This document shows positions 2,361 through 56,486 of a DNA stretch of 64,000 nt, one piece after another. The notes under the pieces were generated by a model, which was not told the origin of the DNA, did not search any database, and saw nothing but the letters and a program-made list of their open reading frames with translations. Location: IMG/VR virus record IMGVR_UViG_3300023213_000432, positions 96,001-160,000 of that record; one strand, written 5' to 3'. The first letter of the stretch is position 1; each line of letters opens with the position of its first letter. The position numbers and the translations under genes are program-made. Source of the DNA: a virus (lineage: Duplodnaviria > Caudoviricetes).

Positions 2361-3345
2361 CGTAATAGATACGTCCATAGGAGAGCCACATATTGTTAGG
2401 GAGTGTCTGCTCAAAATCTTTGATCTTACCTATACTCTGCCTAAAGAAAAAGGGATGTGGGAATACCCTAATCCCAAAGGACACCCTGAATTGATTAAGA
2501 TATTAGAGGATAAGTATAATGCACCCATAGTTATTACCAACGGTGCAATGCAAGGGCTGCATGCCGTGTTTCATGCACTTAAATCAATGGGAAAGGTATC
2601 TATCTCTTGGGCAAAACCGTGGTTTCATTGTTTGCCCAAGATAGCTGAGATGAACGGATTGCAGTGGAGCGAAGGAGAGAATGGGGATGCGATTTTGTTG
2701 GTGGCACCACGTAATCCTGATGGTTTTATGCCATCTCCAGAAGAAGTTAAGAAACTTTTCGAGAATTGCAAAGAGCAAGGACGCTATTTGATCCATGACT
2801 CTGTTTATTATTCTCACACCTACCTTCCTGAAACTTATCCTTTAAAACCTGTTGGAGATGTTCAGATCTTTAGCGCTTCTAAGCTTTTAGGTCTTTCGGG
2901 ATTAAGGGTTGGTTGGATCATCTGCCACAACAAAGATTTTTATCACCCTATCGTAGAATATATGGAAGCTATGACGGTGGGCGCCTCTATGCTCTCCCAA
3001 ATTTTCTTGCGAGATTTATTGGAGCGAACGCGCGCCTATCCATATTTGATTCGAAATTTTGAGAGACTTTCTTCTATTGCTTTGGAGAAATCTAAAGCCA
3101 CCCTCAAAGGAGTTGATCCTGAAGTTTTAGAGGTGCCCGAAAATTTTGAGAAGATTAATGGAATGTTTGCATTCTGTAAAACCAATGATATGGGGCGTTT
3201 TGTGAAAGCAAAAGTAAATGTTGCTGATGGTAAGTATTTTGGTATGGAAGGCTACGTTAGAATGAATTTAGCATTTGGAGAAGAGAAAATGAAAGAGATT
3301 GTTAAAAGATTAAACGAGGTAAAAATGTCAATTACCCATGATTAA
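2320..3345 (+). CDS. PLP-dependent aminotransferase class I/II; last codons supplied by the IS end
   Basis: ITNGAMQGL, PRNPDG, IHDSVY, SASK-LLGLSGLRVGW motifs. Excising the element at 3327 gives ...NEVKI* with TGA overlapping the next ATG. Confidence 0.85.
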   Translation: MNDLLIVKPNILSDVIDTSIGEPHIVRECLLKIFDLTYTLPKEKGMWEYPNPKGHPELIKILEDKYNAPIVITNGAMQGLHAVFHALKSMGKVSISWAKPWFHCLPKIAEMNGLQWSEGENGDAILLVAPRNPDGFMPSPEEVKKLFENCKEQGRYLIHDSVYYSHTYLPETYPLKPVGDVQIFSASKLLGLSGLRVGWIICHNKDFYHPIVEYMEAMTVGASMLSQIFLRDLLERTRAYPYLIRNFERLSSIALEKSKATLKGVDPEVLEVPENFEKINGMFAFCKTNDMGRFVKAKVNVADGKYFGMEGYVRMNLAFGEEKMKEIVKRLNEVKMSITHD

Positions 3346-3625
3346 AATCATGGGCTTGTGCGAAGGATACTAGCCAGATTCTTTTGATCAAGACCAAAAT
3401 ATTGTACTAGACACAGATCAGAATAGGAGACGCAAGTCAAATAAAAGAAGATCAAATAGGCAGATCAGGATCGCTATGACGAGACTGGAAAAGATACGCT
3501 ACTGGATGTTTCGCTAGTCTGTAGCCGCATCTCCGTAAGGAGATGCCAATACCTCATCGATAATTGTGAGGTATTAGCTGTGTTTTGCTTATGTCGAAGC
3601 GAGTTGAACAAGCCCTTTACAGGGA
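3327..3625 (+). ncRNA. omegaRNA scaffold (IsrB-type; 3' end approximate)
   Basis: Conserved omegaRNA blocks GATACGCTACTGGATGTTTCGCTAGTCTGTAGC and ATGTCGAAGCGAG; three copies in the window. Confidence 0.75.
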
Positions 3626-3787
3626 AGGTTTTCTGAGGATTTTTCCTTTCTCTCACGAGAGAATAAAGTCCTCGTTTTTACTAAAACAATTCGTCAAGAT
3701 AAGAGATATTGACGTCTTATATGCACAGAATAGGAGAGTTCAATTCCTTCCACGACTAAAATCGTGGGTCTCCTTGAACCAATTTCC
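3327..3787 (+). mobile_element. non-autonomous IsrB-type IS200/IS605 element (omegaRNA plus ends, isrB body missing)
   Basis: Starts GTCAATTACCCATGATTAAAATCATGGG; omegaRNA nearly identical to the 14843 and 18403 copies; keeps the last ~90 nt of isrB and the end hairpin; followed by ATGAA. Confidence 0.9.
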
Positions 3788-4090
3788 ATGAACGCAGAAA
3801 AAGAAAATCAATCCGAATTGGAGCAAGAGTTTCGAGGGCTTGTTGAACGACATTCGCAAGAGATCGAAGAAAAATTGAATGATGCCAATACTGCCATGAA
3901 AGAAGCGATGACACTTTCTGAAAAATATGGCATCCCTTTTCCAGCTAATATATCCCAAATAAGTCAGTCTTATACTCCAAAATCTTTTATAACAAAGTTT
4001 GGTCAATTAGACAGAGAACTAATTGAAGAATTATCGGGTGCCGAGCTTAATGGCTATTACGGTTGGGAACATTCGGACGTTTGTTATTAG
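3788..4090 (+). CDS. hypothetical protein (GWxxSxxC paralogue family)
   Basis: ATG is the ATGAA target motif; the upstream part of the track ORF (3764) lies in the IS end. Confidence 0.65.
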   Translation: MNAEKENQSELEQEFRGLVERHSQEIEEKLNDANTAMKEAMTLSEKYGIPFPANISQISQSYTPKSFITKFGQLDRELIEELSGAELNGYYGWEHSDVCY

Positions 4091-4327
4091 AAAATTTTAT
4101 TAAAAATTTAATAAACTGAAACATAGTTAATAGAAAGGAAATCATGAAAGCCAAAGAAGTTGAGATTGGTTCTCGCGTCTCCAGAGAAGGAGAATCCGGA
4201 ACCATTGTCGGAAACCAACACAAAGATGGCGATGAAATTGTCATTGTGGAGTGGGATGATCGTTATGATGATAACTTTGAGAAAGTTAATGTTAACGATT
4301 TGATCATTCGGCCCAAGAGAACTAAGA

Positions 4328-4460
4328 GTCAATTACCATCAGCACAAGGCTAATAGCTTGTAAGTAGCATTTCTGCTCCTACAATAGGCTGATTGACAAC
4401 AGCCCGATCCGATAGCCCTTGGCTATCAAGATGCTTGAGGACAATATTTCTACTGCCATT
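4328..4460 (-). ncRNA. TnpB reRNA/omegaRNA scaffold (5' end approximate)
   Basis: Overlaps the tnpB 3' end; block GGGCTGT[T/C]GTCAATCAGCCTA is conserved in five elements; ends at TTGAC, with the flank as guide. Confidence 0.65.
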
Positions 4461-5477
4461 CAAGTCTGCATTTAATCTAAATCCACATTGCTTGCAGCAA
4501 AAGTTAGCTTGACTCTTTCGATTAGAGCGACAAATATATCCACATTTGCTACACCTCTGAGAAGTATAGCGAGCATCAATATAAACTATGTTAATACCCT
4601 TAGCGGCACCCTTATAGATCAAGAACTGTTCTAATTGAAAGAAAGACCAATTGTTGAGCAAAGTGCGTTGTTCTTTTCTTAATCGCTTGTTGCGAATCCC
4701 TGTTAGATCCTCTAATACGATAGTGTCTCCTGGATTTAGTTTATCGATAATCTCCTTGCTAATTTGATGGTTAACATCTGCTCGAAACCGTCTCTCCTTT
4801 CGAGATAATTCTCGAAGGTGTCTTTTGGCAGATTTGCTTCCTGTTCGTTGAAGTCTTTTGCGAAGTCTCTGATAGCGGCGCACAACTCGCTTTACCTCTC
4901 CTCCTCCAAAGAATTGATTGTTGGAGGAAACTGCTAGGTTATTAATCCCTCTGTCGATGCCCACAAAAGTTCCAGCAGGTTGAACGTCTTCAATATCCTT
5001 TTCAAAAACGATATGCAGGAAAACTTTCTTTTTGATGATGCAGAGATCTGCGGAAGTATGCTTCCAAGTTTTAAAATATTCTTTGTAAAAGTTTGGAATT
5101 GTAAGCTGATAGCGTTTTCGTCCATTGATGGTCAGCAGAGAAAGTTGTTGAACATCTAAGAATAGCGTATAAGAATTCTTATCTAAACGAATGCTACACA
5201 GATGGGAATGAGGACAAGAATAATAGCGCTTAGGTTTGGAAAAGACTCCTTTGAGAGCCTCGGTAGCTTTCATCCTAGCGGAGATAGCAAGTTGAGAGGG
5301 AAGATAATCACGTGTCGTATAATAGCAAAGATCGTGAAGTTTGACGCCGTTCTTTTCTTTCTTCTCGAAACCTGTTTGAGCCACGAAGTTAAACGCTTTG
5401 GTATAAGCCTCTAAGGTAGGTAAAATCTCAGGAATTGAGATATTAAGTTTGATCTTAGCGGTTCTTACCAACTTCAT
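4350..5477 (-). CDS. tnpB: TnpB RNA-guided endonuclease
   Basis: RuvC-I GIDRG, RuvC-II VLEDL, YTSQRCSKCG...CKQC zinc finger, RuvC-III NADLNGSRNI; catalytic D/E/D intact. Confidence 0.95.
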   Translation of the reverse strand: MKLVRTAKIKLNISIPEILPTLEAYTKAFNFVAQTGFEKKEKNGVKLHDLCYYTTRDYLPSQLAISARMKATEALKGVFSKPKRYYSCPHSHLCSIRLDKNSYTLFLDVQQLSLLTINGRKRYQLTIPNFYKEYFKTWKHTSADLCIIKKKVFLHIVFEKDIEDVQPAGTFVGIDRGINNLAVSSNNQFFGGGEVKRVVRRYQRLRKRLQRTGSKSAKRHLRELSRKERRFRADVNHQISKEIIDKLNPGDTIVLEDLTGIRNKRLRKEQRTLLNNWSFFQLEQFLIYKGAAKGINIVYIDARYTSQRCSKCGYICRSNRKSQANFCCKQCGFRLNADLNGSRNIVLKHLDSQGLSDRAVVNQPIVGAEMLLTSY

Positions 5478-5483
5478 ACTGAT

Positions 5484-5511
5484 TATATAACTACATATTG
5501 ATAGATGTCAA
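5484..5511 (-). promoter_or_regulatory. sigma70-like promoter in the TnpB element left end
   Basis: TTGACA-N16-TATATA (or N18-TATAAT) 6 nt upstream of the tnpB ATG; same motif at 22536. Confidence 0.6.
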
Positions 5512-5822
5512 GAGAAAAAGAAAGGAAAAGACAATTCCTCCCATAGCACAAGGCTATGGGTATCCTTGCCTAAGAGATCATGAAGTTGATGCGGCTTGGG
5601 AAGAGTGTGAAGTTAAATTTGAATCCGCCCGAAATAAAATAGAAGGTGCAGTAGAGGACTTGGAACGAGCCAATAATTTAGCAATCGAATTCGATATTAA
5701 GATTGCAGCTCGGTTTAATAAGATTGATGTTCTGAGTTTGTTGAGCCAGTTAACTGAAGCAGGTTGGTCGCATTCGAGTTTAGAGTGTTAATTATAATTG
5801 TTGAAGAAAAATCTGAAAAATA

Positions 5823-10870: not shown

Positions 10871-11902
10871 CTAGATATGTTTCCAAGTCCGTCTATGGAC
10901 AATGTGGGCTATTGTTTGATTTGTGCACTTATATTCATCTGCCAAAGCTTGTTGGGTATAATTATTGGTTGCCCATTTGGATCGGATCTCCAAGATATTT
11001 TGTTCGGTTAATCCATATTTGTTTTTGGTTCTTTTTCTTGGACGCTCTTTTGAAGGGAGTATCGCGATACCATGCCTACGAAGTATGTTTTTCACGCTGG
11101 TTGAAGATATGTTATATTCTTTGGCAAGAACTTTCATTTCGATTAAGTGATCGACATATTTAGTTATAAGATCAAGTTCTTGTTCATTGGTTAGGCGACG
11201 GCAATTTAATCCGTTGATTGCTGCTCTTTTGCTTTTAATTCGCTGAATATCTTCTTCGGTAATGATGGAGTGCCCCCTGATCGCTATATAAGTCCCATGA
11301 ATGATACTATGGATAGCGTGGGTATTATATTTAATGGTCAATTCTTCAAAGGGAGTATGTTCGTTGAGATATTCTTGCTGGATTGCAAGACATTCCTCTA
11401 ATGAGAGATCGCATTGTTTGATGTTCATTTGATTGAATTTTTCTTTGTTTGTTTCAATGTATTGCGCTCGGGCTGCTGACATTATCGCAACCGCTTCTGG
11501 TGAGTGTTTTTTTCCAAAGAATGGATTTGCTTTACCAAGGTATTTCTCTTTTTTATGTTTACTCATTTTCTTTTTGGCTTTTTCAGTGTGCTTGTAGCCA
11601 GATGCTCCGTCTCCCCCTTCGGTTATGTTGTATCCGATATTATCATTGCGGGTACCATACATCGCGATATATCGTTTTTCAGCTTCCAAAGCATCGGATT
11701 CTATTTCAAATCTTTCAACCTCTTCTATTTTAAAGTTCTCAAAACCGTATTTGTTTATGGCTCGATGAATATAGCTGTAGTCGTTAGGATCTTGTTTCCG
11801 AGCTGCTGCTTTATGTCCGTTCCATCGCATTCTTATATTATTAGTTTTACCAAAGTAAATTTTATTATTTAATAAATTAGTTATTTTATAGATATACCAC
11901 AT
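10871..11902 (-). CDS. GIY-YIG homing endonuclease with NUMOD3 and HTH domains
   Basis: MWYIYKITNLLNNKIYFGKT...R W H; GYNITEGG; HTEKAKKKMS / NPFFGKKHS NUMOD3. The track start at 12148 overlaps rIIA and was rejected. Confidence 0.88.
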   Translation of the reverse strand: MWYIYKITNLLNNKIYFGKTNNIRMRWNGHKAAARKQDPNDYSYIHRAINKYGFENFKIEEVERFEIESDALEAEKRYIAMYGTRNDNIGYNITEGGDGASGYKHTEKAKKKMSKHKKEKYLGKANPFFGKKHSPEAVAIMSAARAQYIETNKEKFNQMNIKQCDLSLEECLAIQQEYLNEHTPFEELTIKYNTHAIHSIIHGTYIAIRGHSIITEEDIQRIKSKRAAINGLNCRRLTNEQELDLITKYVDHLIEMKVLAKEYNISSTSVKNILRRHGIAILPSKERPRKRTKNKYGLTEQNILEIRSKWATNNYTQQALADEYKCTNQTIAHIVHRRTWKHI

Positions 11903-11938
11903 GATCATACTATATATCATATCGTCTGGAGATTGTTG

Positions 11939-14104
11939 ATGAAAATTGAGTTTGCTGCTCCCAATGTTGAAGCGTCTGATGCATTCGTAGAGCGTATGTT
12001 CTCTATCGGAGATTACGGTGTAGTGTTTGATATTTTGCGCTCTAAACTTTATTCTAACCCAATAGCGTCTATTTGTAGAGAATATGCATCTAATGCGAGA
12101 GACGCAATGCGAGAGTGTGGAAAACCCACTGAACCGATCCAAATCCAACTTCCCAATAGTCTTGATCCAACTTTTAAAGTTAAAGATACGGGCGTTGGTA
12201 TATCTCCTGATCGAATTGAGAACGTTTTTATTAAATATGGATCTAGCACCAAACGAGATACTAATGAACTTTGTGGAGCATTTGGCTTAGGCGCTAAGGT
12301 CGCGTACTCTTACTCATCGGATTTCACCGTCATCACCAACTACAACGGCATCCAATACCATTACTCCTGTATCATCGACGAGACTCGCATCGGTAAGCTC
12401 ATCACCCTCTCCCAAAAACTCACCAAAGAATCCAATGGCACCACTATTTCTGTTCCCGTTCGTGAATCTGATTTCCGAGCCTTTTCCGACTATGTAGAAC
12501 GTGCTTGCCGTCATTGGAATCCGCGCCCCATAATAACCGGCAATTCCAAATTTACATGGATAGACGTCAAAAAAGTCATTGACGGCGCCAACTGGATGAT
12601 GAGTTCCTCTTCTGATTATAATAGCGATCGTGTCAAGTTAATCATCGATGGAATTGAATATCCACTGGATATTAGTGCTCTTAAAGATTATGCGGACAAT
12701 ACCCTAATCAATTCTGCACGCGGAACTATCTATCTTTACTTTGACAATGGATTGCTCAGTCTTTCAGCCAATAGGGAAAATGTTTTTCTTGATAAATCCA
12801 CTCAAAAGAAAATCGCTAAACGTCTCCAAGATGTTAAGTCGGAACTTACCAAAAACATTCAAGTCAAGATCGATAATTTCACCAATCTTTGGGAAGCTTT
12901 ATTATATCGCAACAAAGCCTTATCTGAATCTTTTTATCATCATGACTTTTTAGGTAAATTGACTTGGAAAGGGATGGAACTTAAAGTTGGTAATCTTAAA
13001 GTTGATTGTCCAGTTTATCTTTTCACCAAGGGAAAGTCACAACGATATGGTGCTGATCCGGAAAAGATCACCCGGAGTATGACTCGATTTCTATTGTTGG
13101 AAGAGAAAACTGACATCTATATTAATGATCTCTCTATCAAGGAGCCCTCCACCAAACACATCAAGAAAGCCTTTGAAGACAACAAAGATTTGAAAAATCT
13201 GATGGTTATTTGCCCCACAGATGATGTCAAAGTAGAAGATCTTAACCAATCTATTGGTTTGGATAAGATGAATCCCCAGCTTCTTTCCACTGTTACTCAA
13301 GCTAGTGGAAGGAAATATACTGCCCCATCTTCTCGTTTGTTAGTGTTTAAGAACGATGGTAATCATTTTTATCAAGTAGCCATTAATGACATTGAAACAG
13401 ATGTTAAACCAACTAAAGTGTTGTGTTTGCTTCATAAACAAAATGATCAGTGGTCTTATCAAAAAGAACGGTGGGCGGTCATTAAGGAAGGTAAGCAAAA
13501 TATTTATAATGATATTATGAATAAATTAATCCATTACTTTCGAGATGAGACTTCTTTTTATGGGGTGGATGAGAATGCTCCTAAGGATCGAATTAAAGAA
13601 GAGTTCGGAGGATTCATTTCCTTGGAAGATTTTATTCAAGAACGAGTGATTGATGATAAGAGCATTAATTACCCGGAAATAAAATTTATCAAAAATCATT
13701 GTGGAAACGTGGATGCCGATATGTTAAAGGATTGGGAAGAGTTTAAGTTGATGATTGAGGATCCTAATAGCCTTTTCTTTAAAAGATTGGAATTGCATGC
13801 TAAATTCCAAAAGACATGTAATATGGATGCTTTATTGTTATATCTTTATGAAGCTTTTAATGGGGATATGATGGTAAGTAAAATTAAAAGGTTTGCGGCT
13901 GATCATCCAGAGCTTGACATTATGGCTATGGAGATACAATATGGCAAACAATATCCGTTGCTGAAACATTTGGAAAAATGGGTCGTTGATGGTGATGGTA
14001 AGAGAAAAGGCATAGCACATTATATTAATTTAGTCGATGGTTCTTTAGAACAAGAAAAACAAAAGAAAGAAAAGAAAGAAAAGAAAGAAAAGGAAGACAC
14101 ATGA
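11939..14104 (+). CDS. rIIA: rIIA-like protein (GHKL/Hsp90-like ATPase N-terminus)
   Basis: LYSNPIASICREYASNARDA, VKDTGVGISP, YGSSTKR...GAFGLGAK; directly precedes rIIB. Confidence 0.85.
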   Translation: MKIEFAAPNVEASDAFVERMFSIGDYGVVFDILRSKLYSNPIASICREYASNARDAMRECGKPTEPIQIQLPNSLDPTFKVKDTGVGISPDRIENVFIKYGSSTKRDTNELCGAFGLGAKVAYSYSSDFTVITNYNGIQYHYSCIIDETRIGKLITLSQKLTKESNGTTISVPVRESDFRAFSDYVERACRHWNPRPIITGNSKFTWIDVKKVIDGANWMMSSSSDYNSDRVKLIIDGIEYPLDISALKDYADNTLINSARGTIYLYFDNGLLSLSANRENVFLDKSTQKKIAKRLQDVKSELTKNIQVKIDNFTNLWEALLYRNKALSESFYHHDFLGKLTWKGMELKVGNLKVDCPVYLFTKGKSQRYGADPEKITRSMTRFLLLEEKTDIYINDLSIKEPSTKHIKKAFEDNKDLKNLMVICPTDDVKVEDLNQSIGLDKMNPQLLSTVTQASGRKYTAPSSRLLVFKNDGNHFYQVAINDIETDVKPTKVLCLLHKQNDQWSYQKERWAVIKEGKQNIYNDIMNKLIHYFRDETSFYGVDENAPKDRIKEEFGGFISLEDFIQERVIDDKSINYPEIKFIKNHCGNVDADMLKDWEEFKLMIEDPNSLFFKRLELHAKFQKTCNMDALLLYLYEAFNGDMMVSKIKRFAADHPELDIMAMEIQYGKQYPLLKHLEKWVVDGDGKRKGIAHYINLVDGSLEQEKQKKEKKEKKEKEDT

Positions 14105-14850
14105 ATGTTAAATATTTGATTACTGATAACAGTATTACTGTTCATTTTGATGGACAAACTCACATCGTAGCGCGAGGTGATGCTTTGTCGGAGCGTCTAA
14201 TTGAGGTGCTCCGAAGTGGAAAACATGAAGAAGTTCCTAATTTGGTATCTGCTTCCATGAGAATTACAAACTTTTCCAAAGGAAATTTTACCGTGGAAAA
14301 TGGAGACATCCTAGTTAATGGAATTAAAGCTCCGGATGCTTTGGGTAAAAAGATTGTCAAGTTTGCCAATGAAGGATTACCATATCAACCATTGGTGAAG
14401 TTCGCAGAGCATTTGCAACAAAATCCATCGAGACGATCGGTGGAAGAGTTGTTTATGTTTTTGGAGAAGAATGACCATCCTATTACTCCAGATGGATTAT
14501 TTATTGGATATAAGCGCATTCGTGCTGATTTCAAGGACATTTACTCTGGCACCTTTAACAATACACCGGGTGCGTTGGTGGAAATGGCTCGTCAGGAAGT
14601 GGATGAAGATGCGAATCAGACATGTTCTCGAGGGCTCCATGCCAGTAATTGGGAGTATTGCACCAAGCATTATGCTAGCAAAGATGCCGAGAGTGATGTT
14701 ATTGTAGCTTTGGAAATTGACCCTGCGGATGTTGTGTCGGTACCCGTGGATTATAATAATGCTAAAATGCGTGTTTCTAAGTATCGCGTTATAGAAGTTG
14801 TTAAAGAGCCATATCAAGAGGGCATAGTTATTCGAAAGGTTGGTCAATAA
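14101..14850 (+). CDS. rIIB: rIIB-like protein; stop codon supplied by the IsrB element end
   Basis: ELFMFL...ITPDG.FIGYK.I..DFKD...N.PG..VEM.R..VD....TCSRGLH; TAA lies in GTCAATAA of the element. Confidence 0.88.
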   Translation: MNVKYLITDNSITVHFDGQTHIVARGDALSERLIEVLRSGKHEEVPNLVSASMRITNFSKGNFTVENGDILVNGIKAPDALGKKIVKFANEGLPYQPLVKFAEHLQQNPSRRSVEELFMFLEKNDHPITPDGLFIGYKRIRADFKDIYSGTFNNTPGALVEMARQEVDEDANQTCSRGLHASNWEYCTKHYASKDAESDVIVALEIDPADVVSVPVDYNNAKMRVSKYRVIEVVKEPYQEGIVIRKVGQ

Positions 14851-15145
14851 CCCATGACTAAACTCATGGGCTTGTGCGAAGGGAATCAGTCACTCTCTTT
14901 TGATCAAGTTAAAATATTGTACTAGACACAGATCAGAATAGGAGACGCAAGTCAAATAAAAGAAGATCAAATAGGCAGATCAGGATCGCTAATGACGAGA
15001 CTGGAAAAGATACGCTACTGGATGTTTCGCTAGTCTGTAGCCGCATTTCGTAAGAAATGCCAATATCTCATCGATAATTTTATGAGGTATTCGCTGTGTT
15101 TTGCTTATGTCGAAGCGAGTTGAACAAGGCACGTAAGTGCATTTT
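14843..15145 (+). ncRNA. omegaRNA scaffold upstream of isrB
   Basis: Structured non-coding region conserved across three copies; position 5' of the ORF is typical of IscB/IsrB loci. Confidence 0.8.
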
Positions 15146-16206
15146 TTGAGGAAATAATAGAAATTGGTTCCCGTTATCGATAACCACAAACAACCATTAA
15201 TGCCTTGCTCTGAGAAAAGAGCCAGGAGACTTATGGAGAAAGGTAGCGCTATTTCATATTGGCAGAAAGGTATCTTTTGCATTCGTCTAACTAAAGAACC
15301 TTCTAACCGACAAACACAACCCATTGCTCTTGGGATTGATCCAGGAAGTAAAAGAGAAGGATATACTGTTGCTACTAGAAAAGCAGTAGTATTGAATATT
15401 ACCTCCAATACTCCGGGCTGGATTAAAAAACATATTGATACTCGAAGACAATTACGGAAAAGCCGAAGATATAGAAAAACTCCTTATCGTTCTTGTCGAG
15501 AAAATAGAGCTACTTTGAGGAAAGATCGTGTTCCTCCTTCCACCAAAGCAAGGTGGAATGCTAAATTGCGAATGGTTATTTTTCTTCTGAAAATTATTCC
15601 TATTACCATTATTAATGTAGAAGATGTTGCCGCTTACACTAAGAAAGGACAAGCAAAGTGGAACGTTTCTTTCTCTCCTTTGGAGGTTGGAAAAGTTTGG
15701 TTTTATCAAGAGATAAAAAACCTTGGAGTTCAGCTTCTCAAAACTGAAGGACATCAAACTCAAGAAAAACGAGATCAGCGCGGGTTTCAAAAATCATCTT
15801 CCAAGCTTAGCTATTCTTGGAATGCTCATAACGTAGATAGTCATGTTCTTGCGGAGATGGCGCTAGGAACAGAAATCTTTCCATATTATGGATTGTGGAA
15901 GATAGAATTTTTAGAATTTCATCGAAGACAACTTCACGTTCAGAATCCAATTAAGAATAGCATCAGAAAACAATATGGGACTACTATTTCTATGAAAATG
16001 CCCAGAGGATCTGTCATAAGACATAAAGGTAAGTTCTATTATCTTGGAGGAAGTAGCAAAGGTAGAGTTACTATTCATAGCGTCATTACAGGAAAGAGAA
16101 TTAAGCAATCTGTCAAGAAGGAGAATATTGTTGTTTTATATGCACAGAATAGGAGAGTTCAATTCCTCCCACGATTAAAATCGTGGGTCTCCTTGAACCA
16201 ATTTTC
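14843..16206 (+). mobile_element. IS200/IS605-family OMEGA element carrying omegaRNA and isrB (copy 1)
   Basis: GTCAATAACCCATGACTAAACTCATGGG start, ~320-nt omegaRNA, isrB, end hairpin CCCACGATTAAAATCGTGGG, followed by ATGAA. Confidence 0.92.
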
Positions 16207-16210
16207 ATGA
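15164..16210 (+). CDS. isrB: IsrB (HNH-less IscB-family RNA-guided nickase)
   Basis: PLMP motif, GIDPG (RuvC-I), RRxLRxSRRYRK bridge helix, VED (RuvC-II), HNVDS (RuvC-III); no HNH insert; 348 aa; TTG start with GAGGA RBS. Confidence 0.88.
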   Translation: MVPVIDNHKQPLMPCSEKRARRLMEKGSAISYWQKGIFCIRLTKEPSNRQTQPIALGIDPGSKREGYTVATRKAVVLNITSNTPGWIKKHIDTRRQLRKSRRYRKTPYRSCRENRATLRKDRVPPSTKARWNAKLRMVIFLLKIIPITIINVEDVAAYTKKGQAKWNVSFSPLEVGKVWFYQEIKNLGVQLLKTEGHQTQEKRDQRGFQKSSSKLSYSWNAHNVDSHVLAEMALGTEIFPYYGLWKIEFLEFHRRQLHVQNPIKNSIRKQYGTTISMKMPRGSVIRHKGKFYYLGGSSKGRVTIHSVITGKRIKQSVKKENIVVLYAQNRRVQFLPRLKSWVSLNQFS

Positions 16211-16458
16211 ATCTATTAGACAAGTCTCTTTGGATACCAACTTTATTCGCTAATCGTTTGATGGCAGATTTAGCCAAAAATCATCTTTTGGATCATTTTC
16301 GATGGGAATGCACTATTGTAGTGGATGATGATGGGTATTATATAGTGCGCTTACCAGATAGTTTAAAGCCCGAAGAGTTTTGTCTCGGGCAAAGTTTTTT
16401 GCTGGCATATGCTCATGGATTTTCGGATCGTGGCATGCCAAATTTTAGGGACATTTAA
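16207..16458 (+). CDS. hypothetical protein
   Basis: ATG is the ATGAA target motif; overlaps the isrB stop. Confidence 0.55.
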   Translation: MNLLDKSLWIPTLFANRLMADLAKNHLLDHFRWECTIVVDDDGYYIVRLPDSLKPEEFCLGQSFLLAYAHGFSDRGMPNFRDI

Positions 16459-16477
16459 AAAAGAAAGAAGAAAAAAT

Positions 16478-16864
16478 ATGAAGAATAAAATCAAAGATAA
16501 AATCAAACAATTGACGATCGATGAAAGTAAATGGACGGAAGGAACTTTATATAGTGATGGTTCTTATTGTGCGCTCGGGGCTCTCTGTAAATCTTTAGGT
16601 TATTCCGATCGAAAAATGAAGGGGTGCGCGTTTCCGCGCGATTTAGGAGATTACCCGGAGTGGATGGACAAGATAATCGAGAATGAAGAGTACGAAGATA
16701 TTTTGGGTGATTATCTACCTGATGTAGACGACAATTCTTTTCAGGAAATCGTTCCGGCAATTAATGACGATATGGACTTAGACGTTGAAGAAAAGAAATC
16801 TCTTCTTAGAAATGTTTTCAAGTGGGTTGGAATCGACCTTCACTTCAAAAAATCTAAGAAGTAA
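16478..16864 (+). CDS. hypothetical protein (YCALG motif)
   Basis: Start moved to ATG 16478. Confidence 0.6.
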   Translation: MKNKIKDKIKQLTIDESKWTEGTLYSDGSYCALGALCKSLGYSDRKMKGCAFPRDLGDYPEWMDKIIENEEYEDILGDYLPDVDDNSFQEIVPAINDDMDLDVEEKKSLLRNVFKWVGIDLHFKKSKK

Positions 16865-16889
16865 TCGGATAATTCGGCATTATTTTATA

Positions 16890-17930
16890 ATGTCCGAAAG
16901 GTTAGAAGAAATTAATCCCAAGTTTCGACAACTTACCGATCTCCTTCTCTTTACAGATCGGGTTGATCTTGATCTCTCTAACTTCAAACATCTTTTTCGT
17001 GAAAATCATTCTAAGAATTTAATATACTTCTTAGAACGTTTAGAAAGATCTTTGGAGATTGCATGGGAAAATGGAGAGCAATTTTGGCAGCATCGTTTGT
17101 CTTTCTTGCTTTCTTTGCGAGAGAAGGGATTAATTTCCTGTCTTGATAAGCGTTTAGAAAAACGCTTTGTTACTTTGATGAAACAAAAATCTCAAATTAA
17201 CATCCAATATGATCTTCCTTATTTACAATACTGGACATATTGCAATGTGAAACGACAACGAGGAGAAAATCTTTTCACTGCCAAACAACAACTTATCAGG
17301 TTGCTGGATTATGTTAGTGTGGATAAGATGATCCCCATAATCCTTTCCTTTATTCCCTCAGTCTTTCGCAGTATTAATGAATTTGCGGAAATGATCACTC
17401 ACAAAATTACGCAATCCACTCGTTATTTTGATACCTTGTTGGCTTTAGAAAAACGAGGAATTGAATTTGATTGGATGCCATTATTGGAATTAACCAATGA
17501 AATTATCTTGGTGCGTCCTTATAATGAGAGGAATTGTCGCGCCTTTTTTGTTTTGTTGAACGATTCCTGTATCTTGTCGGAGATCAAAAAACACTATACT
17601 CCTTTACACCGAGAAGGCATTCTAGAAATTTTGGAAGAGTGTGATTATCGACGAATTGAAGAAAACCACCTTCGAAATATCAAAAACTTGATTGAATTGG
17701 ATGAAACTTTGGCGGATGAAATCGTGGAACGATATGCCGATAAATTATATCTTCATCCGATTCATCATAAGAAAGGCAACATCAATAAACTCATTAGAAT
17801 ATTGAAGAAGTTTCCTCAAGCTTCTTCTAAAAGATTATTGTTATATCTTTCTGTTAATGGATTAATGAAAGATATTGAAGAATTGGTTAAGCACCATAAA
17901 GAGCTGGAAGGATTAGTAGCTTTTGTTTGA
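16890..17930 (+). CDS. hypothetical helical protein
   Basis: 346-aa ORF from ATG 16890. Confidence 0.7.
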   Translation: MSERLEEINPKFRQLTDLLLFTDRVDLDLSNFKHLFRENHSKNLIYFLERLERSLEIAWENGEQFWQHRLSFLLSLREKGLISCLDKRLEKRFVTLMKQKSQINIQYDLPYLQYWTYCNVKRQRGENLFTAKQQLIRLLDYVSVDKMIPIILSFIPSVFRSINEFAEMITHKITQSTRYFDTLLALEKRGIEFDWMPLLELTNEIILVRPYNERNCRAFFVLLNDSCILSEIKKHYTPLHREGILEILEECDYRRIEENHLRNIKNLIELDETLADEIVERYADKLYLHPIHHKKGNINKLIRILKKFPQASSKRLLLYLSVNGLMKDIEELVKHHKELEGLVAFV

Positions 17931-17934
17931 GGGC

Positions 17935-17962
17935 TTGACATCGAAATGTAAATGGTTAAAAT
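17935..17962 (+). promoter_or_regulatory. sigma70-like promoter
   Basis: TTGACA(17935)-N16-TAAAAT(17957). Confidence 0.6.
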
Positions 17963-18270
17963 GGGGGTTTAACTCAAATTTTGAAAAATGCATGCAAGGT
18001 GGTGCCTTGCTAGTGGGGCAAGCAGACCCATTAAAACGAGATTAACCCCTCGAAATCTCTGCCGGCTATGAGCACTCAAAAGAGTAAAAGTTCGGCGCCA
18101 AGGGACGTCGATATTATTGATCCGATGCTTTACGAAGGTTACTGCAAAGTGATATAAGTTTAGCAGGAACGATCATATCAAAGCAGACACTATCCAGAAA
18201 CGCAGACATTTGACTTTCGAGTCATTGTCGTCGAAACGGGTTAGATTGCATCCCGATACAACTCTTCAGA
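17963..18270 (+). ncRNA. unclassified structured RNA of about 300 nt
   Basis: ORF-free, GC-richer than flanks, downstream of a promoter; hairpins with UUCG, UACG and GCAA tetraloops on the + strand. Confidence 0.55.
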
Positions 18271-18281
18271 ATTAGGAAATA

Positions 18282-18410
18282 ATGGCACCAACAAAGTTAG
18301 AAGTGGGACAGCGAGTTCGTTGTGTGTTCGCTTATCCGCATAAAGGCAAAACCGGCATTGTCCAGAAAGTAGATGCTATCGGATTAGATATTAAGTGGGA
18401 CGGTCAATAA
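18282..18410 (+). pseudogene. SH3/KOW-like small gene truncated by IsrB element copy 2
   Basis: MAPTKLEVGQRVRCV...LDIKWD-GQ*; excision gives ...IKWD-DENESRCFYAFHRCRQNSNFT* (61 aa). Confidence 0.6.
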
Positions 18411-18700
18411 CCCATGACTAAAATTATGGGCTTGTGCGAAGGATCCTAGTCAGATTCTTTTGATCAAGACTAAAATATTGTACTAGACAAAGAGAGAAGA
18501 AAGGTTATTTAACCAAACGATATTTCAAATAGGCAGATCAGGATCGCTATGACGAGACTGGAAAAGATATGCTACTGGATGTTTCGCTAGTCTGTAGCCG
18601 CATTTCGTAAGAAATGCCGATATTCTATCGATAAATTATAGAATATCCGCTGTGTTTTGCTTATGTCGAAGCGAGTTGAACAAGGCACGTAAGTGCAATT
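18403..18700 (+). ncRNA. omegaRNA scaffold upstream of isrB copy 2
   Basis: Homologous to 14843 and 3327; one internal segment (18490-18530) differs. Confidence 0.8.
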
Positions 18701-19761
18701 TTTTGAGGAAAAGAAACATTGGTTCCCGTCATCGATAACTACAAACAACCATTAATGCCTTGCTCTGAGAAAAGAGCTAGGAAACTTATGGAAAAAGGAA
18801 AGGCTATTTCATATTGGCAGAAAGGTATCTTTTGCATTCGTCTAACCAAAGAACCTTCTAACCGACAAACACAACCCATTGCTCTTGGCATTGATCCTGG
18901 AAGTAAAAGAGAAGGATATACTGTTGCTACTAAGAAAGCAGTAGTTATCAATATCACAACTAATACTCCAGGCTGGATTAAAGATCATGTAGAGACTCGT
19001 AGAAACCTTCGAAGATCTAGAAGATACCGAAAGACTCCTTATCGCTCCTGTCGAGAAAATAGAGCAACTCTTCGAAAAAATCGAGTTCCTCCTTCCACCA
19101 AAGCCAGGTGGAATGCTAAACTGAGAATTATTAAATTCATTCTGAAAATTATTCCTATTACAATCGTTAATGTAGAAGATATTGCCGCTTACACTAAGAA
19201 GGGACAAGCAAAGTGGAATACTTCCTTCTCTCCTTTAGAGGTTGGAAAAACTTGGTTCTATCGTGAGTTAGAAAACTTCGGAGTTCAGCTTCTCAAAACC
19301 AAAGGAACCAAAACTCAAGAAAAACGAGATCAGCGAGATTTTCATAAGCTATCTTCCAAGCTTGATTATTCTTGGAGTGCTCATAACGTGGATAGCCATG
19401 TCCTTGTGGAGATAGCATTGGAATCAGAAATCTCTCCATATTATGGACTATGGAAAATAGAGTTTTTAGAATTTCATCGTAGACAACTTCATGTCCAGAA
19501 TCCAATCAGAGGCAATATCAGAAAACGATATGGAACTACTATTTCTATGAAAATGCCCAGAGGTTCTGTCGTAAAACATAAAGGTAAGTTATATTATCTT
19601 GGTGGAAATAAAAAAGGGAAAGTTTCGCTCCATAGTATCATTACAGGAAAAAGAATTAAACAATCTGTCAAGAAGAGAGATATTGGCGTTTTGTATGCAC
19701 AGAATAGGAGAGTTCAGCTCCTTCCACGATTAAAATCGTGGGTCTCCTTGAGCCTATTTTA
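18403..19761 (+). mobile_element. IS200/IS605-family OMEGA element carrying omegaRNA and isrB (copy 2)
   Basis: Same ends as 14843..16206; followed by ATGAA at 19762. Confidence 0.92.
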
Positions 19762-19762
19762 A
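18719..19762 (+). CDS. isrB: IsrB (copy 2)
   Basis: Same motifs as copy 1 (PLMP, GIDPG, VED, HNVDS), no HNH; similar but not identical to copy 1. Confidence 0.88.
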   Translation: MVPVIDNYKQPLMPCSEKRARKLMEKGKAISYWQKGIFCIRLTKEPSNRQTQPIALGIDPGSKREGYTVATKKAVVINITTNTPGWIKDHVETRRNLRRSRRYRKTPYRSCRENRATLRKNRVPPSTKARWNAKLRIIKFILKIIPITIVNVEDIAAYTKKGQAKWNTSFSPLEVGKTWFYRELENFGVQLLKTKGTKTQEKRDQRDFHKLSSKLDYSWSAHNVDSHVLVEIALESEISPYYGLWKIEFLEFHRRQLHVQNPIRGNIRKRYGTTISMKMPRGSVVKHKGKLYYLGGNKKGKVSLHSIITGKRIKQSVKKRDIGVLYAQNRRVQLLPRLKSWVSLSLF

Positions 19763-22326
19763 TGAAAATGAAAGTAGATGCTTTTATGCCTTCCATCGAT
19801 GCCGCCAAAACTCAAACTTTACTTAAAGATAATTCCGAGTCCTCCATAAAACCTGACCTTCAAGATCGAAAACAATATAAAATCGGAGATCGTGTCAAAC
19901 TTCGGATCAAAGAAAAGCAAGAAGTTTGGGGCACCGTTATCGAGCATAATTCTGCTCATAGTTTGTGTCTTTTTTTGGATGAGGCAATAGACATTGAACA
20001 GAAGAAAAGCTTCAAAACTATAAATCATGAGCGTCAGGAAACTCTTAAGAAATTGGGCATCTCGAATCCAGAGCGCCCTAACTGTTTTTTGTGGGGAGAT
20101 TTTTCCCCTAACTACATTATTGGAACTGACAAAGTTATTGTTTTGGATCGCCTTCTTGACGAAGAAACCATTAATCCGGCAGGTAAATCGATGGACGTTT
20201 TACCAGATTCCATCTTTTTTGATTGTCATAGTAACAGGTTCAGTGGATGCAGGCATGACTCGCAACACGAGCCATCCACTCGAAAAGTATATGCGGCTCT
20301 GAAAATAGATAAAGGAAATCCAGATTTAGTCTATGTTTGCGATCAGCATTTTCAAAATCGAGTTAGCTATAATTGGGAAAATCGTTCTTTAGGTTTTGAA
20401 GGTTTGGTACCATTAGATGTTGGTCCCGCTCCGTCCTATAAATTTGGAGATCGGCTTCAAATTAAGATTAATAACGAGATTGTTTGGGCCACCGTAGTAG
20501 ATGAACGAGGTTCCGGCGCCCATGAACCTCGTCTATCTTATCCGTTATTGCATTTAGATAAACCCAATCCCGCCTCTCATGATTTTATTCCGGAAGATCG
20601 TGTTAAACCTATTTCAGATATGGGTATAAATGTCAATGAGAAAAAGTTTTGGTGGCTTCTCCCTGATAACAAAGTTTTGTATCGTCTTCCTAAAGAACGT
20701 CCATGCACTCCATCTAATCAGCCCACAAAAGAAGGTAAGGGCGATATTGATGGTGCCCAAGTCAAACCACCCGAAGTAAAACAGTTTAAAGAAGGAAGCC
20801 TCGTTAAATATATTGCTGAGAGCGCACAAGTTGGAAGTAATCCAGCCCTGGTTATAGGACAATTATATAAGATTAGGAAAATAGGAAAGAGTATCGATGG
20901 CAGCGATCAAATTTTCTTGAAGGGATTTGATGAAGAAGATATTTGGTGGCGGAAAGAAAGATTTGAATTAATAACTGTTAAGAAAGATGTTCCTGTTGCT
21001 TTAGAGACGCCCACTAAACAAGAAGACAAATGTCAAATTGGAGATCATGTCTCATTGCTCATTGATGGAGTGTATAATACTGGTGGCACGGTAGTGGGTT
21101 TTCAGGATCAAGTTCCATTAATTTGGTTAGATCTTCCTAAACCAGGAAAGTATGGTGGGACAGTTGATTACTATTCCAATAAAGATGTAATTTGTGCTAA
21201 TATCAAAAAGTTAGGCTATGATACAAGTTTGCATCGTTGTTGGATTGCCCATCATTGGCATACCAGGATTCTCAACATTAAACACCTTTATTGGCTGGAT
21301 GCAAACGGCATGCCCTTGAAGTTTGATGATGCTAACTCAACTTTGAAGAATGCGGTAGCACCTCAGCCGCAAGCGAATGAAGTAGTTGATGTTGATAAAG
21401 CTAAATCATTTTCTATTTCCGGCGATGTTTATGGTCCGTATCCTGTCCCAACTACTAATTGGTGGCCGCTTGGAAATCAGTCCAACATCGAACAAAAGCC
21501 CCTTTTCAGCCCGCAGGATATTGAACGTGCCATTAAAACTTTGGAACAAGCATTTGCTATGGGTTTGGCAAAATCAGATCAAAAAGATGCGTTGAATGTT
21601 TTGGATCAAGTGGCTAAAAGATTGGAGCAAAAGGAAGATATTGTAAATACAATAACCAAAACTTATACTTTTTCTCAAGACAATACTTCTAATTGGATGC
21701 CGTTTGTTATAAATGCCGGTGCCAATTCTAAACCCCTTAACTTCAAGTTTGATGGTAAATCATGGAATATTGTTTCGGATGCCCCCATTAATGTTAGTGG
21801 TGGCAAATTAGATCCAGAAGAAAATTTCAAGGTATTTGTTGAAGAGGAAGAACAACCTAACAGCGACGACGAAGCTAAAAAGCGACCCTTTAGCGCTATG
21901 GTTAAAGAAGATGTCATTGATGCTGGATACCGTGTAGTTGCCAATCAACTTACCAAAGGCATTAAAAATGTTTTTCTCCTTGTTCTCAAAGACAAAGGAG
22001 CAGATGATAAGAAAATTACTCTCGTTCGAGAACTATTGGATAGTGAGATCGGCAATGCTTTTGTTTCTATTATCTTGGGATATTGTCTTACTTATATGCC
22101 CAAAGTTAAGGAAGATAAGCGGGCTCAAAAGTTGGCGGGCGAATTCCGCGTAGAAGGGTTATCAACTGCTGGTAATGCTTTGATGAATGTGGTATGGCAA
22201 TATGTTAAGGATTTGCCAGCATCGGAAAAAATAAGAGTGGAAACGAAAGAAGTTCGAGTTTCAGAAGAGGAGATACAAGAAATTGACGAAGTCGGCGAAG
22301 CAAGCGGCAATTGTGCTAATCATTAA
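19762..22326 (+). CDS. large modular protein with several SH3/KOW-like (xxGDRV) units
   Basis: YKIGDRVKL, YKFGDRLQI, FKEGSLVKY, CQIGDHVSL units; exact start uncertain. Confidence 0.7.
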   Translation: MKMKVDAFMPSIDAAKTQTLLKDNSESSIKPDLQDRKQYKIGDRVKLRIKEKQEVWGTVIEHNSAHSLCLFLDEAIDIEQKKSFKTINHERQETLKKLGISNPERPNCFLWGDFSPNYIIGTDKVIVLDRLLDEETINPAGKSMDVLPDSIFFDCHSNRFSGCRHDSQHEPSTRKVYAALKIDKGNPDLVYVCDQHFQNRVSYNWENRSLGFEGLVPLDVGPAPSYKFGDRLQIKINNEIVWATVVDERGSGAHEPRLSYPLLHLDKPNPASHDFIPEDRVKPISDMGINVNEKKFWWLLPDNKVLYRLPKERPCTPSNQPTKEGKGDIDGAQVKPPEVKQFKEGSLVKYIAESAQVGSNPALVIGQLYKIRKIGKSIDGSDQIFLKGFDEEDIWWRKERFELITVKKDVPVALETPTKQEDKCQIGDHVSLLIDGVYNTGGTVVGFQDQVPLIWLDLPKPGKYGGTVDYYSNKDVICANIKKLGYDTSLHRCWIAHHWHTRILNIKHLYWLDANGMPLKFDDANSTLKNAVAPQPQANEVVDVDKAKSFSISGDVYGPYPVPTTNWWPLGNQSNIEQKPLFSPQDIERAIKTLEQAFAMGLAKSDQKDALNVLDQVAKRLEQKEDIVNTITKTYTFSQDNTSNWMPFVINAGANSKPLNFKFDGKSWNIVSDAPINVSGGKLDPEENFKVFVEEEEQPNSDDEAKKRPFSAMVKEDVIDAGYRVVANQLTKGIKNVFLLVLKDKGADDKKITLVRELLDSEIGNAFVSIILGYCLTYMPKVKEDKRAQKLAGEFRVEGLSTAGNALMNVVWQYVKDLPASEKIRVETKEVRVSEEEIQEIDEVGEASGNCANH

Positions 22327-23074
22327 GGATGGATTAATCCTTGGGATTTCTCGAAAAAACGATCCAACCAAATTTTCTCTTATTGGTGGAAAATGCGAAG
22401 TTGGCGAATTACCAGTAGAAGCTGTTCTTCGAGAAACTCTTGAAGAGACCGGCATTGAAGTTCATGATCTCTTAGGCAAGAGATACCCATAGCCTTGTGC
22501 TATGGTAGGAATTGCCATTTACTTTCTTTTTCTCTTGACATCTATCAATAAGTGATTTATATATTAGTACGTTCTTTGAAAATTTGGCGGTTCTATTTCC
22601 ATTGGTTTAATAGCGAAGACACTTCCCGAGTTCAAGAAGGATCTCGAATAGTAATACAGTTGTTCCAATCCTTTTAGATTGGTCTCCGATATAAGAAACT
22701 TAGAACTTAAAAACTTGGATCGTTTAACGATCCCAAGATCATTTCTGGCTATATGCCAGAATGACGGGCTGTCGTCAATCAGCCTATTGTTTCCATTACT
22801 TCGTGATGAGGAACAAGCCATCAGCCTTGTGCTGATGGTAATTGACGGTGGTGCTTTTATCTATGAGCGTGTAGAGCCGAAGGAAAGTCCTGATGGAGAT
22901 GATTTTCGCACGTTTGCTTTCTACGCCACTGCATGGACGGGAGAGCCCAAAAATCTTGAAGGAGGCACAGTTAAATGGTTAACGGCGGCAGAATTGACTT
23001 CCAAAGAAACTGGTGCTTTCCAGAATACAATGCTAAGACACTGGAGCGATTTAGAAAGTTGTATCCGAAAGTAG
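22283..23074 (+). pseudogene. NUDIX hydrolase (136 aa) split by a non-autonomous element
   Basis: Nudix box GGKCEVGELPVEAVLRETLEETG; removing 22466..22846 joins EVH|GGAFIYER in frame. Confidence 0.85.
22466..22846 (+). mobile_element. non-autonomous TnpB-type element (381 bp)
   Basis: TTCAT|GATCTCTTAGGCAAG...TTGACA promoter...GGGCTGTCGTCAATCAGCCTA...CCATCAGCCTTGTGCTGATGGTAATTGAC|; no tnpB ORF. Confidence 0.9.
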
Positions 23075-23590: not shown

Positions 23591-24114
23591 GCTTCAAAAA
23601 TAGTTTTTGTTCCTACTGTGGAGTTAAATTCACGGAGCAAATTAAATACCCACGAAAGTGTTTTAGCTGCTATCAGGATACTTATTTTAATCCATTGCCT
23701 GCGACTATCTCTATCCTTCGAGTATTTGATCCAGAGAGCCATGGTTATTATAGAAGATGGGGAGTGCTAATCACCAAACGAAACATTGAGCCACATAAAG
23801 GTAAATTTTGTTTGGTGGGCGGGTTTTTGGAAAATAATGGCGAAACATGGCAAGAAGCCTCGGCTCGGGAAATGCAAGAAGAAATCCAACTATCTCTTGA
23901 TCCTAGCGAATTCAGTTTAGTGGATATTAAAAATTCCACTGCACCTAAAGGAATTTTATTAATTATAAATATGGTGATTACCATTAAAGAATTCGCCCAG
24001 ATCAAGTTTCAGCCTAATAACGAAGTTAGTCAATTACCAATGACTAAAGTCCTTGGCTTGTCGCTCATCCTACCATTGATAGGAGGTTGTTTTTTAATGG
24101 CAACAATAGGCTGA
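23587..24114 (+). CDS. zinc-ribbon NUDIX hydrolase (NudC/ADPRase-like); C-terminus altered by IS
   Basis: CSYCG...CFSC, LVGGFLENNGETWQEASAREMQEE; residues after 24028 come from the element. Confidence 0.8.
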   Translation: MSFKNSFCSYCGVKFTEQIKYPRKCFSCYQDTYFNPLPATISILRVFDPESHGYYRRWGVLITKRNIEPHKGKFCLVGGFLENNGETWQEASAREMQEEIQLSLDPSEFSLVDIKNSTAPKGILLIINMVITIKEFAQIKFQPNNEVSQLPMTKVLGLSLILPLIGGCFLMATIG

Positions 24115-24377
24115 TTGACAACAGCCCTAAATAAAGTTTGGCGTTTCTAATAGCGACCTGTTAAAAACCGTTTGCTTATTCGATCATAAATGATCAAGAA
24201 AGTGCCTTCTAGGTCTCGATTCGCTAAACGTAGATATTAATTTTTAACTCATCTCTTACCTCTTTCTATTTAGATAGCAAAAGATATATAACCACCATGC
24301 TTGAAGTTTTTAAGAAAAAGAAAGAAAAAAGCAATTCCTCCCATGATTAAAATCATGGGCTTCCTTGCTAAGAGATC
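24029..24377 (-). mobile_element. non-autonomous TnpB-type element (349 bp)
   Basis: On the + strand GTCAATTACCAATGACTAAAGTCCTTGG...CCCATGATTAAAATCATGGG...AAGAGATC; near-identical to 31328..31687; flank is GTAAT rather than ATGAA. Confidence 0.88.
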
Positions 24378-24445
24378 GTAATCGATTAATATTGCTTAGT
24401 TCGCTGAACCAAGTCGAGCCTCTACCACCAACTAAAAGGAAATCT

Positions 24446-26087: not shown

Positions 26088-26133
26088 GTCAATAACCCAT
26101 GATTAAAATCATGGGCTTGTGCGAAAGGAATCA
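26088..26133 (+). mobile_element. 46-bp remnant of an IsrB-type element (5' end hairpin only)
   Basis: GTCAATAACCCATGATTAAAATCATGGGCTTGTGCGAAAGGAATCA|ATGA; matches the first 46 nt of the 14843 element. Confidence 0.75.
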
Positions 26134-26424
26134 ATGACCAAAGATAAAAATAAAGTAGATTTGACACTGTTGAAAAAGTTAGTGATTGAATTGGAGGCTT
26201 CTCTTACCACTGCGGAAGGAGTTGTTGAAACGGATCATAATGGATATTTCGTGGAAATGTCTAAAGGAGCCGGATTAGCCGCAGGAGTCATGCAAGAAGC
26301 GTCTATGTTAATTATGGATATTTACGGAGTGGTTCAATCTAAGCAGGGCGGTGTCTCTGTCAAAGAAAGTTTTTTTGGTGATTTGCTTGGAAAGTTTAAA
26401 GGCGGAATTGGAGGTTCTAATTGA
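26134..26424 (+). CDS. hypothetical protein
   Basis: ATG immediately after the remnant, which supplies AAGGA. Confidence 0.65.
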   Translation: MTKDKNKVDLTLLKKLVIELEASLTTAEGVVETDHNGYFVEMSKGAGLAAGVMQEASMLIMDIYGVVQSKQGGVSVKESFFGDLLGKFKGGIGGSN

Positions 26425-56328: not shown

Positions 56329-56486
56329 TGAAGCAGTTTAACAAGCCCCTTACGGGGAAGGTTTTCTGAGGATTTTTCCTTTCTCTCACGAGAGAATAAA
56401 GTCCTTGTTTTTCTATGAACAATTCCTCAAAAGGAGAATTCAATTCTTCCCACGGCTAAAGTCGTGGTCTCTTCGAACCATTTTTC
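56329..56486 (+). mobile_element. 3' remnant of a non-autonomous IsrB-type element
   Basis: Aligns to about 3595..3787, including the GAGGATTTTTCCTTTCTCTCACGAGAGAATAAAGTCC insert; followed by ATGAG. Confidence 0.8.

Follow-up and report, generated by a model that had tools for sequence, protein, structure and literature searches.

IsrB is the least studied OMEGA nuclease, and the retention or homing of an element by a nick instead of a double-strand break is still undemonstrated. DtIsrB (structure 8DMB; Hirano et al. 2022) recognizes the target-adjacent motif (TAM) NTGA, in which residues R323 and Q326 read G3 and A4, and makes its nick 8–11 nt upstream in the non-target strand; K2IsrB comes from a viral metagenome (PMC9581776). 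The element ISC1-1_MA of Microcystis aeruginosa NIES-843, whose IscB1 protein is an IsrB, has 5′-GTCA termini and inserts at N/ATGA, as proved by empty sites, and both its 3′ terminus and its target recur in the TnpB-only element IS605B-1_MA, which carries its gene in the opposite orientation (Kapitonov, Makarova and Koonin 2016; PMC4810608). In work on ISGst1-5 of Geobacillus stearothermophilus (Meers et al. 2023), the TnpA-defined right end (RE) forms the border of the IscB omegaRNA, elements are co-oriented with the upstream gene, and one TnpA acts in trans on several families and on protein-less palindrome-associated transposable elements (PATEs); transposase and nuclease share a motif there, the nuclease cutting the donor joint and recombination restoring the element (10.1101/2023.03.14.532601). 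A host IsrB element has also been found inserted at ATGA in cyanophage Mic1 (PMC11237433). Here we analyse two isrB loci, F2 and F3, in a window of 64,000 nt (bases 96001–160000) of the IMG/VR virus record IMGVR_UViG_3300023213_000432 (198,652 bp; CheckV completeness, 46%), and find that both are very probably non-autonomous transposons of the IS200/IS605 superfamily, ISC1 (IsrB) type, carried by a huge T4-like phage. Positions are those of the window unless given as record positions.

A first-pass annotation of the window had reported two intact isrB loci 2.2 kb apart, and its coordinates and sizes were correct, as were the flank sequences that it gave (...TTCGAAAGGTTG from the rIIB end, and ...AAGTGGGACG). 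The two loci are laid out as follows, with the limits of F2 taken from homology among seven copies.

14843–16206, + strand: whole element F2 (1,364 bp).
14823–14842, + strand: guide-donating flank of F2 (CATAGTTATTCGAAAGGTTG), made up of the final 20 nt of the rIIB-like gene, directly 5′ of the conserved scaffold start.
14843–15147, + strand: omegaRNA scaffold of F2, from GTCAAT to a hairpin and U-run (GGCACGTAAGTGCATTTTTT, 15128–15147).
15164–16210, + strand: isrB of F2 (348 aa, TTG start), its stop TGA formed by bases 2–4 of the flanking ATGA.
16207–16210, + strand: ATGA after F2, a candidate both for the TAM and for the TnpA target (read as TCAT on the opposite strand); the downstream 83-aa open reading frame (ORF) has its first ATG here.
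18403–19761, + strand: whole element F3 (1,359 bp).
18383–18402, + strand: guide-donating flank of F3 (ATTAGATATTAAGTGGGACG), the end of a 42-aa ORF (18282–18410).
18403–18704, + strand: omegaRNA scaffold of F3, of the second scaffold subtype.
18719–19762, + strand: isrB of F3 (347 aa, TTG start), the stop TAA straddling the border between element and ATGA.
19762–19765, + strand: ATGA after F3, candidate TAM; the downstream 854-aa ORF has its first ATG here.

The DNA homology that F2 and F3 share begins precisely with GTCAATAACCC (14843 and 18403) and stops immediately ahead of ATGA (16207 and 19762); outside these limits the sequences are unrelated, and 2,196 bp separate the two elements. Similar subterminal hairpins are present at both ends (CCCATGACTAAACTCATGGG at the 5′ end and CCCACGATTAAAATCGTGGG at the 3′ end), terminal inverted repeats are absent, and the flanks show no target duplication. 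The GTCA... terminus, N/ATGA insertion, lack of target duplication and subterminal hairpins are shared with ISC1-1_MA and IS605B-1_MA, the likeness being one of element architecture. The border rule applied here (5′-GT belongs to the element, ATGA to the target) comes from the comparison of copies and from the published ISC1-1_MA empty sites (PMC4810608). An element start at TCAAT, which would leave the G to the flank and recreate GGATGA stop/start overlaps at five sites, was rejected because G is found in 20/20 termini whatever base precedes it, because the Rfam model of the IscB/IsrB omegaRNA, HEARO, begins with GUCAA, and because the ISC1-1_MA empty sites assign 5′-GT to the element (PMC4810608). 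The unrelated flanks of F2 and F3 and the synonymous divergence of their genes (dS ~0.46) agree with the proposal of the first-pass annotation that these are independent insertions with different guides; a tandem duplication of one insertion was rejected on these two grounds (dS 0.46).

Both proteins are supported as IsrB, not IscB, because no HNH family was found by Pfam, because the linker between the second and third RuvC motifs comprises 68 cysteine-free residues (E153 of RuvC-II to H222 of RuvC-III) and because DtIsrB is the best match by sequence and by fold. The proteins are 84% identical in a gap-free alignment, and each matched RRXRR in Pfam (PF14239; E = 4e-40 and 3.5e-41), with a weak RuvC match in addition and no HNH family in either at E ≤ 1. 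Among solved structures, the best sequence match was DtIsrB 8DMB (E = 1.8e-33 with a single sequence and 1.9e-47 with a profile); sequence matches to IscB chains were confined to the N-terminal 115–156 residues. An AlphaFold2 model generated from 41 homologues (mean predicted local distance difference test score (pLDDT), 82) likewise had 8DMB as its best fold match (E = 2e-25; template modelling (TM) scores of 0.74/0.78 over all 348 columns), and IscB structures covered less of the target (TMt 0.5–0.6). Profile search and structure prediction, both of which the first-pass annotation had asked for, therefore bear out its assignment to the HNH-less family. It had also noted PLMP, a bridge helix and three intact RuvC motifs, and we found the motif residues present and the catalytic ones invariant. 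PLMP occupies residues 11–14 in both ORFs (P11-L12-M13-P14), within a domain modelled at pLDDT >90; among the 41 homologues, P14 is invariant and L12 nearly so, and D59, E153, D154, H222, D225 and H227 are all invariant. Four of these residues (D59, E153, H222 and D225) align with AVDPG, TEDV and HANDA of DtIsrB. Further towards the C terminus, R312 is invariant and Q315 is the consensus residue, with the R-x-x-Q spacing of R323/Q326 in DtIsrB. Like DtIsrB, the proteins are approximately 350 aa long, with a PLMP motif, a split RuvC and arginine-rich bridge helix and no HNH, and in a fold alignment that spans the whole protein their C-terminal part is a candidate TAM-interacting domain; identity in the structural alignment is only 28%. 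All four isrB copies of the record start with TTG; database gene calls begin at Met24 and lose the PLMP motif.

Each element carries an omegaRNA of approximately 300 nt, which, as in DtIsrB loci, lies upstream of the gene and takes its guide from the 5′ side. HEARO aligns over its full length upstream of each gene (14843–15125 and 18403–18681), and the omegaRNAs here differ from the HEARO model by extra insertions. RNAalifold, applied to an alignment of ten scaffold sequences (seven copies of the record and three relatives from other viral contigs), predicted 76 pairs, with compensatory change in 24/76. The scaffold ends at its 3′ side in a short hairpin and U-run, approximately 15 nt ahead of the TTG start. 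The divergence of the two omegaRNAs near 18490–18530, already noticed in the first-pass annotation, is real and sets apart two scaffold subtypes, one in F3 and F4 and the other in F1, F2 and the isrB-less derivatives described below (minis). The scaffold of one of these, M3, is a mosaic of both subtypes, which suggests exchange between copies.

The sequence ATGA stands directly 3′ of 7/7 isrB-type elements of the record (four full copies and three minis) and of the remnants, all with identical ends and unrelated flanks, and also of the relatives L009 and L010; it fits the NTGA recognized by DtIsrB. In 4/7 elements, the ATG of this ATGA is the first ATG of an ORF of ≥80 aa (in 5/7, of ≥74 aa), against a background in which only 9.3% of this strand's 1,443 ATGA sites are starts of this kind. 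Each of the three frames meets a stop codon within the first 19 nt of the element, and in five of the six intact copies from the record and relatives the stop codon of isrB is the TGA within the flanking ATGA, the sixth having a TAA that straddles the border. A search of the record revealed no second place next to NTGA that matches any of the guides, and the F2 flank is unique in it, so occupied sites are not self-targets.

Although the pair of intact loci pointed out in the first-pass annotation stands, the pair is not alone: it belongs to a family of approximately 20 termini together with minis, TnpB elements and a TnpA. A whole-record search revealed four intact isrB elements (F1 to F4; record positions 65133, 110843, 114403 and 167253) and three minis that lack isrB and keep the omegaRNA and the last ~105 nt (record 73379, 75938 and 99327), as well as several remnants of 46–100 nt. 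A single deletion junction is common to all three minis, two of which lie outside the window; hence the minis spread after the deletion arose. The smaller copies within the window are these.

3327–3787, + strand: mini M3, scaffold and last ~105 nt, followed by ATGA (3788–3791) that is the start codon of a 100-aa ORF.
26088–26133, + strand: remnant comprising nucleotides 1–46 of the omegaRNA end, with TAG directly before and ATGA (26134–26137) after it.
56429–56486, + strand: 3′ end, now decayed, of an element of the mini type; ATGA (56487–56490) comes next.

The record has approximately 20 occurrences of the terminus GTCAAT(A/T/C)ACC with its hairpin, and 18 of these lie on the + strand; all isrB-type copies are co-oriented with the phage genes. 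The same terminus opens three tnpB elements (starting GTCAAT(T/C)ACC), in which the genes lie on the minus strand and the other end reads ...GAGATC directly before ATGA; relative to the gene, the ends are inverted in comparison with isrB elements. In total, the record has three to four tnpB elements of this kind. The only tnpA of the record encodes a Y1 transposase of 131 aa (PF01797; E = 2.8e-42) and overlaps a 364-aa tnpB in a tnpA–tnpB element on the minus strand (record 44384–45816; locus L008, 449–1884), the hairpins of which (CCAACGAC...GTCGTTGG; TCACGACTTTAGTCGTGA) are similar but not identical to those of the isrB elements. An ATGA start codon is found 21 nt past the end of the tnpA–tnpB element.

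As in ISC1-1_MA, ends and target are common to a TnpB element of opposite orientation, TnpA acting in trans in that system. Unlike ISC1-1_MA, the elements described here reside in a huge T4-like phage rather than a cyanobacterial chromosome, their copies share 85–88% DNA identity as opposed to ~97%, and omegaRNA-only minis and 46-nt remnants accompany them. With ISGst1-5 they have in common similar ends across families, protein-less derivatives, co-orientation with the upstream gene and guide RNAs whose predicted target is the donor joint, and the motif shared by transposase and nuclease is TTCAT there, with TCAT as the candidate here; ISGst1-5, by contrast, encode an HNH-bearing IscB that makes double-strand breaks in a bacterium, in place of what would be an IsrB nickase in a phage.

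Two further kinds of short repeat are present. Gene-less repeats of approximately 360 nt, 91–94% alike (24029–24382 and 31328–31691; record 94032–94391), begin with GTCAATTACC, end with a hairpin and CTTCTTTGCTAAGAGATC, are followed by GTGA or GTAA, and are probably guide-RNA-only derivatives of tnpB elements. At 58043–58088, a 46-nt element has both termini merged on one hairpin (GTCAATTACC-hairpin-CTTCCTTGCTTAGAGATC) and is followed by ATGA; similar micro-elements of 46–52 nt were found at record positions 53779–53827 and 54750–54795. One tnpB element of the window (4328–5584; gene at 4350–5477, minus strand) starts with GTCAATTACC, ends ...GAGATC before ATGA, and seems to split a phage gene: its removal in silico fuses an upstream 69-aa ORF (4144–4353) in frame to EVDAAWEE... 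(downstream ORF 5498–5791).

Substitution patterns among the four isrB genes (pairwise ratio of non-synonymous to synonymous rates (dN/dS) of 0.17–0.23 at dS 0.40–0.48) indicate that the copies are old and under purifying selection. The close relatives of this clade (53–70% identity, ≥120 clusters) are partly on viral or very large contigs, and the best matches in 185,579 representative prokaryote genomes reach 45–49% identity, which hints that the clade may be a phage-associated lineage. Among 50,697 GenBank phage records, IsrB-family (RRXRR) genes were found in four: the Microcystis phages Ma-LMM01 and MaMV-DC, Bacillus phage AgentSmith and a 485-kb uncultured phage. These have one copy each (AgentSmith has two matching places), in contrast to the four intact copies plus minis, TnpB and TnpA here, and their proteins are only 29–46% identical to the IsrB of this record. 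The element architecture was already published for bacteria in 2016, and phage IsrB genes are rare but on record; what is new is the huge T4-like phage host, how many and how diverse the copies are, and that a single viral genome unites tnpA, tnpB and guide-only derivatives. We regard the family as a clear fresh example in an unusual host, not as a new system or mechanism.

On its 5′ side, F2 abuts the following gene.

14101–14850, + strand: rIIB-like gene (249 aa), which reads into F2 and stops on its TAA (...KVGQ-stop).

This rIIB homologue (PHROG 609; E = 3e-67) is immediately preceded by rIIA (PHROG 612; E = 2.6e-82). Host contamination was rejected, the first copy being flanked by rIIA and rIIB. 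A search of IMG/VR and metagenome contigs with the rIIB-like protein returned a closest relative of only 56–61% identity. This relative (480 kb; rIIB 56% identical), a virus record that is complete, has conserved the gene order rIIA, rIIB, ..., with the 381-aa ORF represented by a homologue. We found no isrB in this relative and no homologues in it of four ORFs that flank the elements. The aminotransferase-like gene upstream of M3 does have a homologue there, ending ...KRLNSLKE-stop; with M3 removed in silico, the gene upstream of M3 ends ...KRLNEVKI-stop and has a canonical ATGA stop/start overlap with the next, which supports the chosen element borders. As an observation on rIIB itself, every relative of 54–61% identity (loci L014 and L033–L041) has 50–100 residues more than the 249 aa found here, forming an acidic tail (...YPYEDE...) past the point at which F2 starts.

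On the transposon reading, the elements would travel in single-stranded form, carried by TnpA to positions 3′ of TCAT, which is ATGA when read on the gene strand. Transcription running on from the phage gene upstream would yield an RNA whose first ~16–20 nt are flank (the guide), followed by the scaffold, and the IsrB–omegaRNA complex would recognize the flank directly joined to ATGA. That junction would exist only in a genome copy without the element, either an excision product or a co-infecting relative, and the predicted cut is a nick in the + strand. Recombination-dependent replication would then repair the nick from the element-bearing copy, and the element would be restored or copied in (homing). 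Occupied sites would be immune, the element separating the guide match from the TAM, and minis could use IsrB in trans. Because T4-like phages replicate by way of recombination, a nick should easily be turned into a recombination event; the suggestion that a nickase may suit homing in a replicating phage is reasonable in this respect.

Several observations weigh against this reading. A nucleotide-level empty site was found for none of the copies: megablast of 12000–22500 against GenBank phages gave no match, nor did the exact pattern of the reconstructed F2 empty site in IMG/VR, and we therefore infer insertion from the comparison of copies and from synteny at 56% protein identity. In five of the seven sites (14843 and 18403; record 65133, 73379 and 75938), the upstream ORF lacks its own stop codon and is closed by the TAA of the element (...GQ-stop or ...CQ-stop), and plain removal of the elements predicts overlaps of 14–68 nt with the next gene, which are found at only ~10% of ATGA starts here. 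The end of the tnpA–tnpB element (...GGAGATC) abuts GTAA (TTAC on the other strand) and not ATGA in this record of 46% completeness, and its TnpA is a candidate for the mover of the isrB elements. No copy is the product of a recent transposition, given a dS of ~0.45 between all of them. The HEARO scores (22.8 and 24.8 bits) are far under the gathering score of 83, so support for the omegaRNA comes from position and conservation. The TAM role of R312/Q315 is assigned only from motif spacing, the sequence alignment to DtIsrB ending at residue 293. Expression, RNA processing, nicking and homing of these elements are predictions drawn from published work on IsrB, IscB and TnpB.

On a rival reading, the copies might be old immobile relics, their genes still open while transposition and homing have been lost in this phage, and the uniform divergence (dS 0.40–0.48 for all pairs, none recent), the many decayed remnants, the low HEARO scores and the absence from the record of a tnpA with matching ends can all be read in this way. 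Relics, however, would hardly keep a dN/dS of ~0.2 with invariant catalytic residues or compensatory changes in the omegaRNA, and the spread of minis after a shared deletion and the mosaic M3, pointing to exchange between copies, also argue for activity; we consider loss of mobility highly improbable. An unlikely reading, less remote than that of relics, is that the phage has recruited the elements, with IsrB, TnpB and guide-only RNAs forming a trans-acting network against co-infecting relatives that lack the insertions. Nicks or cuts would then bring about marker exclusion, a weapon in competition, and flanking phage genes would be dragged into progeny. Four diverged isrB copies under purifying selection, at least three omegaRNA-only minis with their own guides, and ~20 termini in 198 kb, placed at gene starts where they do little harm, are what such a network would display, as is a clade with close relatives (53–70%) on viral or very large contigs and a best prokaryote match of 45–49%. 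Yet each guide targets its own insertion site only, as a selfish element needs, and matches nothing else; a benefit to the phage is hypothetical, the same pattern is seen in bacterial ISC1/IS605B families (PMC4810608), and homing and exclusion look alike in sequence. We retain ISC1-type transposons as the preferred explanation.

A broader reading, which we put forward tentatively and consider possible rather than probable, is that the huge phage keeps a complete OMEGA system: one TnpA, four IsrB, at least three TnpB and at least eight guide-only RNAs, all having ends of a single type and ATGA at start codons as their common target; the proteins would act in trans on the guide-only copies and so drive a dozen or more loci into co-infecting relatives or back into excised sites. 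The elements would be harmless in operons owing to the stops in three frames within their first 19 nt, and ATGA would serve as TAM, as IsrB stop and as start codon of the next gene (translational coupling); the clade might even be specific to huge phages. Insertion at start codons illustrates how IS200/IS605 elements can increase in number within a virus and yet do little damage to its closely spaced genes. The phage also offers a natural test bed, with four diverged IsrB/omegaRNA pairs and their native targets for cross-loading, guide-only minis for tests in trans and TnpB elements with the same ends for comparing nickase with nuclease.

Two other features were observed near the elements. Between F2 and F3, a stretch of 350 nt without an ORF (17931–18281) follows a strong sigma-70-like promoter (TTGACA-16-TAAAAT, 17935–17962); it matches no Rfam family at E ≤ 1, and its RNA folds more stably than 100/100 shuffled sequences (z = −2.8). 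Upstream, a GIY-YIG homing-endonuclease-like ORF (10871–12148, minus strand; PHROG 314, E = 1.4e-32) overlaps the start of rIIA, placing a second, protein-guided type of selfish nuclease near the RNA-guided ones.

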